The notes: a model not told the origin generated them from the sequence alone. Counted from the stretch's first letter, positions 6,152 through 45,840 are shown. The stretch is DNA of 64,000 nucleotides from an uncultured Oribacterium sp. (GCA_900770445.1 CAAGKO010000009.1:5918-69917), one strand, 5' to 3'. A program made the numbers and translations.

Positions 6152-6381
6152 GTTTATGGGGTCAGACCCCCTTACGAAATTCGAACATCTGTAGCTACGA
6201 TGCAGGTATATATATCAGCAAAATCGTGGTATGATAGCAGTATCGAATTTGTAAATTCTGAGCGATACAAATGAAAAATGGACTGGTGGTGCCTGACAGT
6301 AGTATCGATTTGTAAATTCAGATACGGAAGACACTGCAATGAAGAAACGGGCCGGAAGCGACCCGAATGGAGGATATCGTT

Positions 6382-7101
6382 ATGGGCAAGAAAAAAGGTT
6401 TAGGTGGTCTCGTCGGATTCGCTGCACTGGTCGGCGGTGTTGCCGCCGCTGTATCCTATCTCTATAAGTATGAGAAGTTTTCTGAGGAGGTCGATCAGGA
6501 CTTCACGGATGTACTTGAGTCCGCTTCTGAAGTGAAGGATTCCGCGAAGCGATCCTACACGACCCTGAAGAACAGCCAGACGAAGGAAGACTTCAAGACC
6601 GCAGCGAAGGATATCGGTGTAGCCGCAAAGAACCTCGCGGTCGATGCGAAGAACCTCGCCGTCGACGCCGGCAAGGACGCATACAAGACCGTAAAGGAAG
6701 CCCTCGATGAGAAGCTGTCCGGCGCGGCAGAAGAAGATGATGATGTCGTCGACGAGAACGTCGAGCACATCTCCTATCCATATGTAGATGATGAGGACGC
6801 AGAGGCGGATACCGAGGACGCAAAGTCGGATACCGAAGAGGTGAAGGACGAGGCTGCGGAAAAGGCGGAGGATACCGACATCGAGCCGGAGGATGACAGC
6901 GACGTCGAGGTAGAGTTCTTCACGACGGATGCGGATGACGCGAAGACAGATGCGTCTGAGAAGGATACCGAGCCTGCGGCAGAGGCACCTGCGAAGGACG
7001 AGACTGCAGCAGACGCTACGAAGGCCGCTGTAGATGCGGCTACGGAAGTGAAGCAGGAAGCGGAGGAAGCAGAAGCCACTGCAACCATCACCGAAGAGTA
7101 A
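6382..7101 (+). CDS. Hypothetical membrane-anchored, highly acidic low-complexity protein
   Basis: N-terminal TM (GLGGLVGFAALVGGVAAAVSYL) followed by a D/E/A/K-rich tail. GGAGG RBS before the ATG at 6382; an alternative start is 6367. Confidence 0.55.
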   Translation: MGKKKGLGGLVGFAALVGGVAAAVSYLYKYEKFSEEVDQDFTDVLESASEVKDSAKRSYTTLKNSQTKEDFKTAAKDIGVAAKNLAVDAKNLAVDAGKDAYKTVKEALDEKLSGAAEEDDDVVDENVEHISYPYVDDEDAEADTEDAKSDTEEVKDEAAEKAEDTDIEPEDDSDVEVEFFTTDADDAKTDASEKDTEPAAEAPAKDETAADATKAAVDAATEVKQEAEEAEATATITEE

Positions 7102-7117
7102 GTTTAGAAAATCGTAT

Positions 7118-7152
7118 AGCGCGAAGGAAACCGTTCCTTCGCGCTATTTTTT
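7118..7152 (+). terminator. Rho-independent terminator (AGCGCGAAGGAAACCGTTCCTTCGCGCT + T6)
   Basis: Perfect stem followed by TATTTTTTAA. Confidence 0.8.
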
Positions 7153-7183: not shown

Positions 7184-8835
7184 ATGAGTTATACAGTTCG
7201 CGACTTACTTATATCAGATAGATTCCCAGGAATGCAGTTGCTTTGCGAAGGCGGTGGACTTGATCGAGAAATCATGGGAATCCGTATCCTTCATAGACCG
7301 GATATGGCACGATTTATGCGGGGGGGGGGGAAGTACTCCTTACGAGTCTGCAGGCCTATGAAAATGCCGAAGAAAAAGAAGTCAGGCAGCATTTACAGGA
7401 GATTTGCGATAAGAAGGTTTGTGCTTTTATAGTAAAACGAAATACGAAAACGAAGCAGCAGAGATACCTGAAGATTTTGCTGCAGATTGCGGAGGCACAG
7501 CGGATTCCGGTCATCGAAATTCCGGAGGACATCTACTTCAGCGAGATCATAAAGTATGTGTTGATGCAGATTTTTGATCGTGAAACCGCGAAGCTGATCT
7601 TCTTTAAAATGGTCCATGATTATATGAGCTATATCGCCCCGCATGGAGACGATATCAGATCCACGATCCAATGCATGATTCAGCAGATGAAAATCGTCCT
7701 CGGAAATCCGGTGGCACTTTATGATACTGAATTTAATTGCCGGGTATCCAGCGAAGAGCAGAGCGTACCGTTTGCGCTCGCGGAAGATCGCACGGAGTTT
7801 GTAACGGATGTGGTGACACAGTATACCTTCTATCGTCAGAAGAGAGATTGTGTCGAGTTTATCAAAAAAATCGACATTTCGGGACGCTGGGAAGTATACC
7901 TCGTGATATCCGAGAGCGAAAATCCGATGAATGAGCTCGACTTCATCGCACTGGAGAATATGGTCGTCAGTCTTAAATATACGATCGCGTGTGCAGTAAT
8001 TGAGGTGGACACCAAAAAGAAATATCACGGAGACGTAATCTACCGTCTTCTGAAAGGCGCGCTGTCAGCTGATGAAGAGGATGAAGCTGCAGAAATACTG
8101 CATCTTCAAGATGCCGACGAAATGCGTGTTGTTACCTTCCGCATGATGCCGACGAATCATACCAGCAGATTTGCGGAAGAAATCATAAACGAAACAAAGC
8201 TAGAGGAAGAGGCGATCGCGAAGCTTCTGCCGAAGGAGTATATTCTGGCCATTACAAATCAGGTCATCTATATCCATAAAAAGGATGAAAAGGAGAGTGA
8301 TCGGGATTTTCGCAGCCGAATCGAGGATGTTCAGTGCCGTGTGCAGCAGCGTCTGGTGCAGAGAAAACTTAAACTAGAGTGTCTGGTGGGGATAGGAAAG
8401 AGTGTTCGTGGATATCATCGCTTAAAAGAATCCTTTGAGGATTCGAAAACAGCGATTCGATACATCTCAATCATTCGGACGATTGTGGGTGATCAGAATA
8501 AATCCGTAGTCGACTGCTCGGAACTCGGCTTTTTCCGTATGTTTGTGGAAACGCAGGATCGGGCAAAGCTCGAGACGTTCATTCCGGAGTCATTAAATCA
8601 GCTTGAAGCGTATGATTGTAAGAAAAACACGGAACTGATCAAAACGCTTGAGTGCTACCTCAACAACAAGCAAAGCATCAAAATGACATCCGAGAAGCTG
8701 TTCGCGCATTATCGAACGATCAGCTATCGGCTTGAAAAAATTGTTGACCTCACCGGCATGGATTTCAGTAACCCGACGGAGATGCTTGCCGTACGGAACG
8801 GACTGATTATTTATCGTATTCTGGAAAATATGTGA
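7184..8835 (+). pseudogene. PucR/CdaR-family transcriptional regulator interrupted by a +1 frameshift inside a G11 homopolymer (7320-7330). Removing one G gives a continuous ~550-aa protein.
   Basis: ORF 7184-7432 ends ...ARFMRGGGKY. In the -1 frame the sequence continues GEVLLTSLQAYENAEEKEVRQHLQEICDKKVCAFIVKRN... and joins the 7477-8835 ORF. The C-terminus is a PucR HTH (KMTSEKLFAHYRTISYRLEKIVDLTG). Confidence 0.75.
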
Positions 8836-9192
8836 TATAAAAACACATCTGCGATATGTTTTTATGCAGCACGTGAGTTTTCAAAGAGAAAATACTTCGA
8901 TGTGATTTGCATCGTTACGAGAACCTTGTCATTTCAGAATGATAAGGTTCTTTTTTGTGCTTATAATTCGTTTTTAAATCTGTATAGACGCGATGTAAAC
9001 GAATGATATGGAACACATTTTACGCAAAGCACGCGTAAAATGTTCATATTTTGCACATTATATAAAAAATAAATATCACTATAATGACTGATACTGAAAA
9101 CACACAGATAAGTTTACCGGAGAGATGATGAAGAGAACATGTAAATCCATAACCCAATCCGGGTACGAGAATCATATGAAACAGGTGATAAA

Positions 9193-12108
9193 ATGAAAAA
9201 ACGAATGATGGCAAGCCTACTGGTAGCTGTGATGATTATAACTATGGTACAGTCTACGGTGCTTGCAGACTCTAATGAATCCATGAAACTACTTATGGAA
9301 AGTGAAGAGACGACAGATTCCCGCGACGATGATACGGCATCTCCGTCCGAGATCGATCGTGAAGAGACAACAGACTTCTGTGACGATGATGTGTCATCTC
9401 CATCCGACATTGAAGAAATCGAGCCGTTCGCAGAAGTAAACTATGAGGTATCCACCGACGCTGAGCTTATCACAGCACTGGATAAGATTAAGGCAAGCGA
9501 GGATACCGAAGCCACCATTGTGCTCGAAAAAGATGTAACGGCACCGAGTACTTCCGGCGGTAGCTATATGAGATCCTTTGGTGTGGATGGTAAGCATATT
9601 ACAGTAAAGAGCGAAGAGGGAGAAATGAAGAAGCTCTCCTTTCCTTATTATGGTGTTCTGACCGGTGACTGCACCTTTGATAATGTCGATGTGACCGGCA
9701 GCAGACTGTTCTGCAACGGTTACCAGACGATTTTCACCGAAAACGGTCAGATCCATTTGAGCGAAACGCTCTACGGCGGCGGTTACCAAACAACGGTAGC
9801 CAGTACATATGTTGTTATTGCAGCAACAGGTTATATCAATCCATACTCTGCCAGCGGTTTGCACGATGTGATTGGTGGCTCATATCAGGGATCGGTTGAG
9901 GGTGATACCTATCTGGAAATCACAGGTGATATTAAAATGCAGGGTGGCAACCACTTAAACCCTGGTTGCATGAAAGGTGATGGCAGTAGCGGCGATGGCA
10001 GGGATGTGCCCGATGTCTATGTCGGCGGCAATGCTACGCTGATTTATGACAACAAAAGCAGTACCGCGTCTCCTGCAATTGAAGGCACATACGGCTGCGA
10101 AATGAAGGGAGATGTCACGCTGGATGTTCGTGCAGGCCGTGTAGCGGGCATTGTCGGTACGGAGGAACCGGTCGATAAATCCATCATTCACGGTAATTTG
10201 CATATCATTGCAGGTAATCCTGCTTATGAGAATACCGATCAGGTTCTGCGGTTAGGTAGCAACTGGCCGATTATTGGCGCAGGCAATAGCTTTGCAACCT
10301 ATCCCGGTGTTGAGGGCAATTATACGGTAGACGGCAACATTACGATCGACACCTATGAAAATGTATGGGCATGGGACAAAGGAACTGAGCCCACCTCGTA
10401 TGATCTGCCGGAAATCTACGGAGCCTTGCGCGGTGATGTAGGCGGCAGCATTACGATCAATGCCCACGGTTCTCATGTACAGAACATTTTCGGTGCAAGC
10501 GATTCGGTTATTCAGGGTTCAGTTACGGTCAATGCAACCGATGTTGAACTGAAAAACAGCGAGTATGATACTGAATATGATGAAGGCTATCTTTTCGGCC
10601 TGTGGGAAAGAGGTATCCCAGCTACCGCCAAAGGCCCAGTGACCGTAACGGTAAACGGCGGCGATGTGGGCCTTGTGATGGCTACCGATCAAGAAACTGT
10701 ACCGGCGGGGTCTTCCATTAATGTCACCGGAAAGCCGAAAATCCGCAACGGTATCCGCGGAACACAGGCAAGTTCTTATTCGACCGAATTCCCGGTTGCC
10801 AATGTCTATGCCTGTGAGGCAACCATTCCGTTCATCAAGGGGATGTCGCAAGTCAATATCACAAACAATTCCGCAGTGACTGCCCATATTATGACCAGCA
10901 ATGCCGGCTTGTTGGTAGAGGAAGGCAGCAGCCTGACAACGGATAACGGTCAGGTCTGGATTTGGGGCGATACTGTCATTAACGGCACCTGGGAACAGCT
11001 GCATAGTCAGACGGCTAATTATAACGATATTTTTGTCAATGGCACCACACAGATCGGTTCAACCGGCCATCTGATCAATCATGGCGCAAGTAATCTGAAC
11101 GGGGCAGTGACCAATGACGGAGTGATGGCTTTCATGAGATGGGCATTACTTCAGAGTGACTATACGGCGAATCATGGGGAGCTGCGTCTGCCGGCAGTGG
11201 CAGATGGTGCAAATTACGATACCGGTACAATTCCGGTACAAATAAATGGACTTTCCACAGGTACAACTACGGTCAACACAGTTGATCCGGCAGACTGGAA
11301 TACATTGAAAAAACCTATGCTCGGCGACAACTATATTCTCTCAAAGAAAAATACGGATGCGCCTGCTCAGGAGGCGTTCCTCTTGGGGAATGAGGATGCT
11401 CTGCAAAGCGGCTGCTTTCTTAAACGTATGGCCGATGCTGACGGCACAGATGACTATTATATGTGGCAGGTGGCCAGTGGAATTCGTGTGATCTTCGACA
11501 AAGATGGTGGTGATACCGAAGCATCTCCTCACATTATGGTAGAGGAAAAAATCGCTGGCCTCGTAGACCATTTTAATCTGCCTAATGTCGAACCAACTCG
11601 TAGCAACTACGAGTTTACCGGCTGGAATACGAAGCCGGATGGGAGCGGAGATGTGTTCACTGCCGAAACCGATGTTAAAGAAAGCATGACGGTTTATGCA
11701 CAGTGGAAGCCTCTCACAAACAACGGCAGTGGTAATCCTGGAGGAACAGGCACCGAAGAGCACCCGGGAGGTGTAAGTGGTGGCAATGGAAATAACCCTG
11801 GAGGAGCTGGCAATGGAGAGCAAACAGGGAATGCAGGTGAAGGTAACAGTGTCATCGGTAGTGGCATAACGGAAGAAACGACCGCTGCGGATGGCCAGGA
11901 TTCCGCTACGCTGGTGACGCAGGACAATGCGATCACACCGGACAGTACAAACACACCGGAAAAGGCAGACGCACAGGATAGGCCGCAACCGCTGGCCGCG
12001 CACAGATCTGTAAAAACCGGTGATGAAAGCAATATGGTTCTGTGGTTCACGCTGATGCTTATCTCAGTTTGTGCATTTACAAGTGATTATATTTATAAGA
12101 GAAAGTAG
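9193..12108 (+). CDS. Large secreted cell-surface protein (putative adhesin) with a beta-solenoid-like G-rich repeat body, a Listeria-Bacteroides (Flg_new-type) repeat and a C-terminal cell-wall sorting signal
   Basis: Signal peptide MKKRMMASLLVAVMIITMVQS. The segment NYEFTGWNTKPDGSGDVFTAETDVKESMTVYAQWKP matches the Flg_new repeat. The C-terminus reads SVKTGD + hydrophobic stretch + KRK, a non-canonical LPXTG-like sortase signal. Confidence 0.7.
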   Translation: MKKRMMASLLVAVMIITMVQSTVLADSNESMKLLMESEETTDSRDDDTASPSEIDREETTDFCDDDVSSPSDIEEIEPFAEVNYEVSTDAELITALDKIKASEDTEATIVLEKDVTAPSTSGGSYMRSFGVDGKHITVKSEEGEMKKLSFPYYGVLTGDCTFDNVDVTGSRLFCNGYQTIFTENGQIHLSETLYGGGYQTTVASTYVVIAATGYINPYSASGLHDVIGGSYQGSVEGDTYLEITGDIKMQGGNHLNPGCMKGDGSSGDGRDVPDVYVGGNATLIYDNKSSTASPAIEGTYGCEMKGDVTLDVRAGRVAGIVGTEEPVDKSIIHGNLHIIAGNPAYENTDQVLRLGSNWPIIGAGNSFATYPGVEGNYTVDGNITIDTYENVWAWDKGTEPTSYDLPEIYGALRGDVGGSITINAHGSHVQNIFGASDSVIQGSVTVNATDVELKNSEYDTEYDEGYLFGLWERGIPATAKGPVTVTVNGGDVGLVMATDQETVPAGSSINVTGKPKIRNGIRGTQASSYSTEFPVANVYACEATIPFIKGMSQVNITNNSAVTAHIMTSNAGLLVEEGSSLTTDNGQVWIWGDTVINGTWEQLHSQTANYNDIFVNGTTQIGSTGHLINHGASNLNGAVTNDGVMAFMRWALLQSDYTANHGELRLPAVADGANYDTGTIPVQINGLSTGTTTVNTVDPADWNTLKKPMLGDNYILSKKNTDAPAQEAFLLGNEDALQSGCFLKRMADADGTDDYYMWQVASGIRVIFDKDGGDTEASPHIMVEEKIAGLVDHFNLPNVEPTRSNYEFTGWNTKPDGSGDVFTAETDVKESMTVYAQWKPLTNNGSGNPGGTGTEEHPGGVSGGNGNNPGGAGNGEQTGNAGEGNSVIGSGITEETTAADGQDSATLVTQDNAITPDSTNTPEKADAQDRPQPLAAHRSVKTGDESNMVLWFTLMLISVCAFTSDYIYKRK

Positions 12109-44571: not shown

Positions 44572-45456
44572 TCAGTCAAGAATGCTAAGGAACGCATCGA
44601 GTGACTTTCCGGTGTTGCCGGCGTTGTAAACATAGCCGATGCTGCGGGATGGTACCGGGAACTGGGTCGGGATCTCGATGAGGCTGCCTTCGTCGAGCTC
44701 CTTCTGTACGAGCTCGCGGATCACGCAGCCGATGCCGATGCCGATCTTCGCGAAGTCCACGAGCAGATCCATCGTGGTGACCTCGAGAATCTGTGCCGGC
44801 TCGATGCCCATGGTCTTGAAGTAGTCATCGATGTGACGACGGGTCATGTTGTTCTGGTCGAGGAGCATGATGTTGCCCTCCTGGAACGGATCACAGTCCT
44901 CGCCGTACATCGCCTTCAGATTTTCGAGATACTGTGGGGTCGCGACGAAGGTGTCGTGAATCTGCTTCGGGTGAACGAAGCGGAGCTCCGGACGACGTGT
45001 GCGCGGCTCGGCGGTGAGACCGATGTCGATTTTTTTCTGCTCGAGCAGAGCGAGCGTCTGTGCGGTCGACTGTGTGATGATCGACACGCGGATATTCGGA
45101 TACTTCTGCATGAAGGTCTGAAGATATGGCAGCAGGATGTAGCGGCAGAGTGTCGTCGATACACCGATCTGCAGGTGGCCGATATTGAAATCCTTCATAC
45201 GCTTCAGCTCGGTCTCCGCGTTATTGATATTATCAAACGCATCCTTAATATAGCGGTAGAGTACGGTGCCTTCCTCTGTCAGCGTAACACCGCGGGAATT
45301 CCGGTGAAAGAGCTTCGTATCGAGTCCGTCCTCGAGCTTTACGATGGACTTGGAGATCGCCGGCTGTGAAATGTACAGCTTCTTCGCGGCCTTCGAAATA
45401 TTGCCGCAGCTTGCAACCTCGTAGAAAATTTTGTAACCTGACAGATTCTGATCCAT
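44572..45456 (-). CDS. LysR-family transcriptional regulator (divergent from leuC)
   Basis: wHTH ISQPAISKSIVKLEDGL. The start at 45456 follows a G8 tract (C8 at 45464-45471 on the plus strand) that acts as an SD-like sequence. Confidence 0.8.
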   Translation of the reverse strand: MDQNLSGYKIFYEVASCGNISKAAKKLYISQPAISKSIVKLEDGLDTKLFHRNSRGVTLTEEGTVLYRYIKDAFDNINNAETELKRMKDFNIGHLQIGVSTTLCRYILLPYLQTFMQKYPNIRVSIITQSTAQTLALLEQKKIDIGLTAEPRTRRPELRFVHPKQIHDTFVATPQYLENLKAMYGEDCDPFQEGNIMLLDQNNMTRRHIDDYFKTMGIEPAQILEVTTMDLLVDFAKIGIGIGCVIRELVQKELDEGSLIEIPTQFPVPSRSIGYVYNAGNTGKSLDAFLSILD

Positions 45457-45840
45457 GATAATTCCCCCCCCAAGATAAGGTCGTCTGACCGTAACTGAAC
45501 ATATCGCCATGCGGCTGAGTGAATGCTTCCGATGACGCCTCTGCCTTTATCCGAATTTCTTCAACGCTTTAAAGCAAAGTAATGAATAATAGGCATTTTT
45601 AATATAACATATTTTCTCAACATAACACAAGATTATTTGTAACATGTTTTGACATAACCTTGCAAGAAAATTGGTGCAAAGTGCGAAAATCAGTATAGGC
45701 AAGATAACACGCGGTAATAATGATTATCAAAAACATATATTATGATTATGCCTGGAGGGGTGCTATAGTGTGTGAAAGAGTTTACTAAGAAGGAAAGCGC
45801 AACGAAGCGTCCTTGTCAGGATATAGAATAGGAGTTAAGT

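Follow-up and report, generated by a model that had tools for sequence, protein, structure and literature searches.

A run of eleven consecutive guanines (G11) was found to interrupt the reading frame of a PucR-type regulator gene in DNA from an uncultured Oribacterium sp., a genus of the Lachnospiraceae. The stretch analysed, referred to below as the window, comprises 64,000 nucleotides (nt) of one strand (GCA_900770445.1, CAAGKO010000009.1:5918-69917). The run, termed site B, lies at 7320-7330 on the plus strand and falls on codons 46-49 of the regulator gene, where it takes in an Arg codon and two Gly codons and ends on the initial base of the Glu codon of the motif GGE(V/L)LLT. It is the longest homopolymer of the window; no other G or C run reaches 7 nt except a C8 at 45464-45471, which is also the next-longest homopolymer. 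From the ATG at 7184, the N-terminal residues of the open reading frame (ORF) agree with the family consensus M.YTV.DLL.S..FP.M.L; with eleven Gs, the family frame is left at codon 50 and a stop is reached at 7432 after 82 codons (7184-7432, plus strand). The rest of the gene is intact in another frame on the same strand, running from GAA at 7330 to TGA at 8835, and encodes the middle domain and the C-terminal helix-turn-helix (HTH). Both the count of eleven Gs and the early end at 7432 agree with a preliminary description of this DNA, which had further held that ten Gs would restore the frame.

That last claim did not hold. When the gene was rebuilt in silico with 8 to 13 Gs and the resulting ORFs were compared, G9 gave a single ORF of 549 amino acids (aa) reading ...FMRGGEVLL... 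(FMRGGEVLLTSLQAY), and G12 gave a single 550-aa ORF reading ...RGGGEVLL..., while G10 led to a stop after 58 codons; G8 and G11 ended after 81 and 82 codons, respectively. In-frame lengths are referred to as on and out-of-frame lengths as off. In the family alignment at site B, G47 is nearly invariant and both G48 and E49 are invariant. The next in-frame start codon with G11 is the TTG at 7477, which is codon 99 of 549, and because no obvious ribosome-binding site precedes it, the off state of the window allele is probably null. A 452-aa gene call from this TTG is identical to a protein present in NCBI and ENA (P0125).

The repaired protein carries the PucR N-terminal domain PF07905 at residues 7-129 (69.2 bits against a cut-off of 33.5), the HTH_30 domain PF13556 at residues 484-537 (57.8 bits against a cut-off of 27) and the motif GGEVLLTSLQAY, in agreement with the PucR-typical motif and C-terminal HTH described earlier. 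The GGDEF-like or GAF-like middle domain PF17853 scored 23.5 bits, just under its cut-off of 24.5, and none of the NCBIfam equivalog models was reached, the best being AdeR with 62 bits against a cut-off of 700. In an AlphaFold model with a confidence score (pLDDT) of 85.6, an alpha/beta domain at the N-terminus is followed by a GAF-like middle domain and an HTH at the C-terminus, and its fold matches in Foldseek included the PucR-like proteins Rv2242 and BAD_0249 and GAF-type folds such as those of CodY regulators and phytochromes. In this model, site B and a second position, introduced below as site A, both form glycine loops that link secondary-structure elements.

Runs of at least 9 Gs are expected 0.26 times per window according to dinucleotide-preserving shuffles, and at least three G9 matches, which is what one G11 run yields, were obtained in 2 of 100 such shuffles. 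GGG is the rarest Gly codon, making up 6.4% of the Gly codons in the window genes, and therefore the run opposes codon preference, yet it is kept. None of the 74 other Gly-Gly pairs encoded by the window genes uses GGG-GGG.

The preliminary description had proposed comparing tract length across isolates, and relatives indeed fall into G8, G9, G10 and G11 classes at site B. The DNA of 18 related loci was compared, taken from Logan and ENA assemblies and from L011, a metagenome-assembled genome (MAG) labelled 'uncultured Oribacterium sp.' that is the only close relative among species-representative genomes (loci carry L numbers and proteins P numbers). Against the off allele of the window with its G11, L016 has G9 and is on, encoding 549 aa, and over 1,500 nt it differs from the window 28 times (98% nucleotide identity); L019-L021, from three ENA assemblies, have G8 and are off, with 31 differences from the window (98%). 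L001 has G9 and is on, and L017 and L018, which belong to the same accession series, have G10 and are off; over 1,500 nt they differ from L001 6 and 2 times, respectively. A further allele, L022, has G8 and is off. Thus, G8 (off), G9 (on) and G10 (off) alleles that are 94-98% identical to that of the window occur in independent public assemblies, and run length varies between strains that are 99.6-99.9% identical over 1.5 kb. A search with the 82-aa product of the window also retrieved a product of the G11 class from an independent ENA contig (P0299), differing from that of the window in one residue (S2R), and therefore G11 is not unique to the window assembly. An exact-flank DNA search for the site gave no match in species-representative genomes or JGI metagenomes, a scan of viral contigs found no relatives, and tblastn against plasmids returned only distant PucR-family matches of 23-28% identity.

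Sister alleles carry a run at a different position. Site A lies 24 codons upstream of site B, and its equivalent in the window, at 7247-7258 on the plus strand, reads GAAGGCGGTGGA over codons 22-25 (EGGG), which is interrupted and forms no run; it is a loop between strands in the model. In the sister alleles, found in the same Oribacterium species or one very close to it, this position is occupied by a G7-G9 run: L003 has G7 and is on, L004, L005, L006-L010 and L011 have G8 and are off, and L002 has G9 and is off, while L023, with a different sequence context, has G8 and is on. All alleles with a site-A run read the interrupted CAGGGTGGGGAA at site B, and the converse also holds, so that each allele has exactly one long run. 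At the protein level, full-length forms within the same 90% clusters read CGGV, CGGGV or CGGAV at this loop, and the off-type calls there show either alternative-frame N-termini (MTYSHQIDF...) or starts from a GTG within the run (MGGAV...); further members are 452-aa calls of the window type. For the listed cluster members, about 18 contigs have in-frame calls and about 48 have calls that only a run frameshift can produce. The alternative ATG that gene callers choose in site-A off alleles, yielding MTYSHQIDF..., was considered as the start of a functional isoform and rejected, as it lacks a ribosome-binding site, does not occur in the window allele and replaces conserved N-terminal residues.

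Some contigs break close to the runs. L019, L020 and L021, which come from different ENA assemblies, have exactly the same first base, which precedes the site-B run by 59 nt, and the L005 contig begins 20 nt upstream of the site-A run; such starts could reflect assembly-graph breaks caused by within-sample length heterogeneity or strain mixtures, or assemblies that are not independent. Additionally, a 48-aa ORF lies between the regulator gene and the acidic-protein gene upstream of it in some site-A lineages, as called in L003 (148-294), L004 (935-1081), L006 (546-692) and L007 (225-371), and has no counterpart in the window and the site-B lineages.

Apart from the run, the off alleles are intact. 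A 1-nt change in the run turned every off allele tested into an ORF of 545-551 aa, and no second lesion was found in any of them over about 1.6 kb. The Nei-Gojobori ratio of non-synonymous to synonymous substitution rates (dN/dS) of the repaired genes was 0.03-0.35, including comparisons between two off alleles (L004/L011, 0.16; L006/L011, 0.17; window/L002, 0.26). The 21 codons upstream of site A, the only translated part expected in the site-A off alleles, showed 10 synonymous and 4 non-synonymous differences between lineages. These values indicate that the off alleles are still under purifying selection.

Homologues beyond Oribacterium were compared as protein sequences only, using 90% clusters of homologues with 46-51% identity (P0173-P0342), the source labels of which include Blautia sp., Blautia glucerasea and Holdemanella porci. 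Two length classes were observed, namely full-length proteins of 549-554 aa and calls of 483-511 aa that start just after the GGE motif, and the truncated class is often found on more and longer contigs: the truncated P0285 (500 aa) on 756 contigs against 95 for the full-length P0286 (554 aa), the truncated P0189 (483 aa) on 108 against 68 for the full-length P0190 (552 aa), and the truncated P0243 (511 aa) on 120 against a few for 552-aa forms. By contrast, nearly all members are full length in two clusters, of which one bears the label Anaerobutyricum hallii (P0215, 896 contigs). When the first 48 residues of a Blautia-like member were used as the query, 42 clusters of 35-78-aa proteins were retrieved, and most of the 30 that were read are canonical up to FL[GRV]GG and then continue in either alternative frame to a stop (...NCS or ...TAPDEYESL), with two to five glycines before the alternative-frame tail. 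Some of these fragment clusters comprise 40-127 member sequences or about 96 contigs, and back-translation of one pair fits a G10/G9 run, giving RGGGRELLL (on) and RGGVENFC followed by a stop (off). These results suggest that the same site is hypervariable in the Blautia-like homologues. Conservation of the switch across this PucR-type subfamily of oral and gut Lachnospiraceae is in our view about as likely as not; if it holds, a hypermutable G run would have been retained by selection, from genus to genus, on an invariant glycine motif of a regulator, Oribacterium would have moved the run between two glycine loops, and a stochastic regulon switch, off in most sampled populations, would be widespread in abundant human commensals.

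The regulator gene is flanked by genes for two proteins with surface features, as the preliminary description had proposed. Upstream, at 6367-7101 on the plus strand, lies the gene for a 244-aa acidic protein (isoelectric point 4.05, 71 Asp plus Glu) with one N-terminal hydrophobic segment, which bears out the acidic membrane protein of that description; it matched no Pfam or NCBIfam family, and ORFs of 235-239 aa occupy the position upstream of the regulator gene in L004, L016 and L023. Downstream, again as described, lies the gene for a surface-type protein of 971 aa (9193-12108, plus strand), the putative target of the regulator, with a signal-peptide-like N-terminus and one Listeria-Bacteroides repeat. 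It may be anchored by sortase, as that description proposed, but its C-terminus gives a mixed picture: a hydrophobic stretch and a KRK tail are present, but these follow SVKTG and not an LPXTG motif, and a search with anchor models gave no match at E ≤ 0.01.

A terminator-like hairpin of 14 pairs followed by a T run separates the acidic-protein and regulator genes (7116-7147, plus strand), and a second one lies 3′ of the regulator gene (8919-8952, plus strand), with an equivalent in all lineages. Just past the latter, at 9015-9043 on the plus strand, an A/T-rich palindrome, ACATTTTACGC-N7-GCGTAAAATGT, with TTTTACG/CGTAAAA half-sites forms a candidate operator, at which protein binding is presumed. 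At the same relative position, sister alleles (L002, L003, L004, L006 and L011) have TTTTTACGTAAAAA, in which the half-sites directly abut, in contrast to the N7 spacer of the window. A conserved -10 box follows the palindrome at a distance of about 35-65 nt; in the window it is TATAAT at 9080-9085 on the plus strand. This box is preceded by a conserved CATTATATAAAAAAT element and would be part of the promoter of the surface-protein gene; in most sister alleles it is extended (TGTATAAT). The order of acidic protein, terminator, regulator, terminator, promoter and large secreted protein is kept in every related locus that is long enough, and the terminator, the palindrome, CATTATATAAAAAAT and the -10 box are kept even where the downstream coding sequence is unrelated. 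The last gene in the relatives encodes either 966-991 aa or more with a Listeria-Bacteroides repeat, or about 2,740 aa with Cna_B; the last ORFs of other relatives are incomplete at 1,934 and 2,272 aa or more and have no family match on record. Because gene order, palindrome and promoter are conserved, we infer that the regulator controls the surface-protein gene. In L017, a 72-nt insertion with a G7 run (about 2040-2112) directly follows the TATAAT box, and it is absent from the near-identical L001, L016 and L019 and from the window.

Divergence at the locus is uneven. Between the window and L011, the flanking glutaminyl-tRNA synthetase gene (glnS) is 96% identical in nucleotides and 99% in amino acids, the regulator gene is 84% identical in nucleotides, and the surface-protein gene has no detectable similarity; moreover, the region at about 7.0-12.1 kb has 41-50% G+C against 55-60% around it. 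Judging by this uneven divergence and the low-G+C islet, the regulator gene and the surface-protein gene beside it (5143-13648 in L011) make up an allelic cassette that has diverged within a single species or a pair of very close species, and that looks like one exchanged within a species. Elsewhere in the window, the C8 at 45464-45471 is a G8 on the minus strand, 7 nt upstream of the ATG at 45456 of a LysR-family regulator gene, where it occupies the Shine-Dalgarno position (GGGGGGGGAATTATCATG). This run could be another element of variable length, one that affects how translation of that regulator is initiated. An Rfam scan of the whole window reached the gathering score for no family, with no riboswitch, tRNA-like or rRNA match.

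We consider it likely that the G run is a slipped-strand contingency locus in a PucR-type regulator gene that is off in the window, with the surface-protein gene as the presumptive target. Since run lengths vary among near-identical alleles and the off alleles are otherwise intact and under purifying selection, the most probable reading is that the run turns the gene on and off reversibly by mutation and did not arise as a single error. Slipped-strand mispairing at replication would add or remove Gs; the full regulator of 549 or 550 aa would be made with G9, which was seen, or G12, which is predicted, and synthesis would stop after 58-82 codons with G8, G10 or G11. The G11 of the window would be one slip from G12 and two from G9, the only documented on length. 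At site B, the run lies in a loop where relatives accommodate one more Gly, and in sister alleles the equivalent run lies over the second Gly loop, with one armed site kept per allele. Switching would be reversible and fast within a population, and the regulator would act on the adjacent surface-protein promoter via the TTTTACG/CGTAAAA palindrome, such that the cell surface changes.

Several observations weigh against this interpretation. Homopolymers of 11 nt are error-prone on pyrosequencing, semiconductor and nanopore platforms, and the eleven Gs might be a sequencing or assembly error in a genome that truly has G9 or G12 and an intact gene. In line with such a miscall, the closest in-frame relative, L016, has G9, and the regulator gene is the only frameshift noticed on the ORF map of the window, which shows no other obvious split gene, a systematic frameshift check not having been made. 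A miscall is nevertheless unlikely, as the independent contig P0299 gives the G11-class product on a slightly different allele, out-of-frame G8 and G10 recur in independent assemblies by different assemblers, and NCBI and ENA hold a 452-aa call identical to that of the window; even if the length in the window were wrong, the locus would stay length-polymorphic. A further reservation is that G8 is consistent on the identical L006-L010 alleles (five samples, one study) and in L019-L021, which may mean that the run is stable enough for a consistent consensus or that the samples within these groups are not independent. Moreover, off states outnumber on states in public assemblies and G12 was not seen in this clade. 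The predominance of off states is consistent with selection against expression in the habitats sampled, but repeated loss of function gives the same pattern, and the palindrome at 9015-9043 that is proposed as an operator was also flagged as terminator-like.

Repeated loss would make the run a mutational hot spot at which the regulator has been lost for good here and repeatedly elsewhere, with no adaptive switching. The excess of off alleles, the two steps that separate G11 from the only documented on length and the single off length shared by L006-L010 all speak for a fixed pseudogene of this kind, which we regard as quite improbable: none of the off alleles has a second lesion, comparisons of one off allele with another still give a dN/dS of 0.16-0.26, and ahead of the run the codons are conserved in the original frame. 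A run built on the rarest Gly codon nevertheless persists, arose at two sites and was not purged, and its state differs between near-identical strains. Recoding at the level of expression is also conceivable, in that transcriptional slippage or ribosomal frameshifting would express the frameshifted gene and run length would tune its level without an on/off state. Long homopolymers can cause RNA polymerase slippage, and the sequence G GGG GGG would permit re-pairing of tRNA-Gly in the -1 frame. However, G8 and G11 would require a shift opposite to that required by G10, in-frame alleles exist, G runs are not known to be among the efficient slippery sites, and the 90 nt of RNA 3′ of the run fold no better than shuffles (z = -0.10 for the 111-nt stretch including the run). 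Ribosomal frameshifting was thus rejected as the main mechanism because of the opposite shifts and the absence of structure after the run, and recoding as a whole is very improbable. Some leaky transcriptional slippage may occur, and such expression would modulate a DNA-level switch and not replace it; RNA polymerase slippage is a topic cited in PMC9187656.

A regulator that flips beside a rapidly exchanging surface cassette would give rise to heritable and reversible heterogeneity of the cell surface, which bears on adhesion, immune recognition and phage susceptibility. Annotation pipelines call such genes truncated or split (452-, 483-, 500- and 505-aa calls), which leaves the switch invisible in current catalogues. 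Among the papers covered by a full-text search, none connected homopolymer phase variation with Oribacterium, Blautia, Lachnospiraceae or PucR regulators.

Phase variation in commensal Clostridia of the gut and mouth is known mainly from invertible promoters, and homopolymer switches are textbook knowledge for Neisseria, Haemophilus, Campylobacter, Helicobacter and Bordetella. Within the PucR/CdaR family (B. subtilis PucR, E. coli CdaR, AdeR and PmfR), the window regulator shares the N-terminal PucR domain with its GGE(L/V)LLT motif, the C-terminal HTH_30 domain and probably a GAF/GGDEF-like middle domain, but known members control catabolic operons, whereas this regulator adjoins a surface-protein gene and has a hypermutable run. 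Regulators switched by a homopolymer frameshift include Bordetella bvgS, with its poly-C run, and Campylobacter jejuni flgS/flgR. Homopolymer phase variation in these genera has been reviewed (PMC1891110, PMC8355987). As in bvgS and flgS/flgR, frameshifts at a short homopolymer within the regulator-coding sequence would turn a whole downstream programme on or off; those regulators, however, are two-component systems of Proteobacteria and Campylobacterota, whereas here a one-component PucR-type regulator of Lachnospiraceae is concerned, with a run that takes one of two alternative positions depending on the allele.

The poly-G contingency loci of Neisseria and Campylobacter, such as hmbR/hpuAB (PMC3786947) and those found by genome-wide surveys (PMC5084427), likewise have runs of about 7-12 nt early in the ORF, on and off states set by frame and mixed states among isolates. 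They differ in that dozens of loci, mostly surface or modification genes, are involved, compared with one run in an ORF and one G8 at a ribosome-binding site per 64 kb here, and in that the window host is a Gram-positive anaerobe. In Bifidobacterium breve UCC2003, intragenic G-tracts of sortase-dependent pilus genes switch by replication slippage, which was measured by maximum-depth sequencing (PMC9187656). This system resembles the present one in having a Gram-positive host that lives as a commensal in the human gut or mouth, in an intragenic G run of about 8-11 nt, in the coexistence of in-frame and out-of-frame lengths and in the link to the surface, here a presumptive one; in contrast, the run lies in a pilus structural gene of Actinobacteria, and here in a regulator beside a surface gene of Clostridia that is known from assemblies only. 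Collectively, these comparisons suggest that the locus is functionally a classical homopolymer contingency switch, and that its distinguishing features are the oral/gut Lachnospiraceae host, a possible conservation across genera, the one-component PucR-type regulator and the two run positions.

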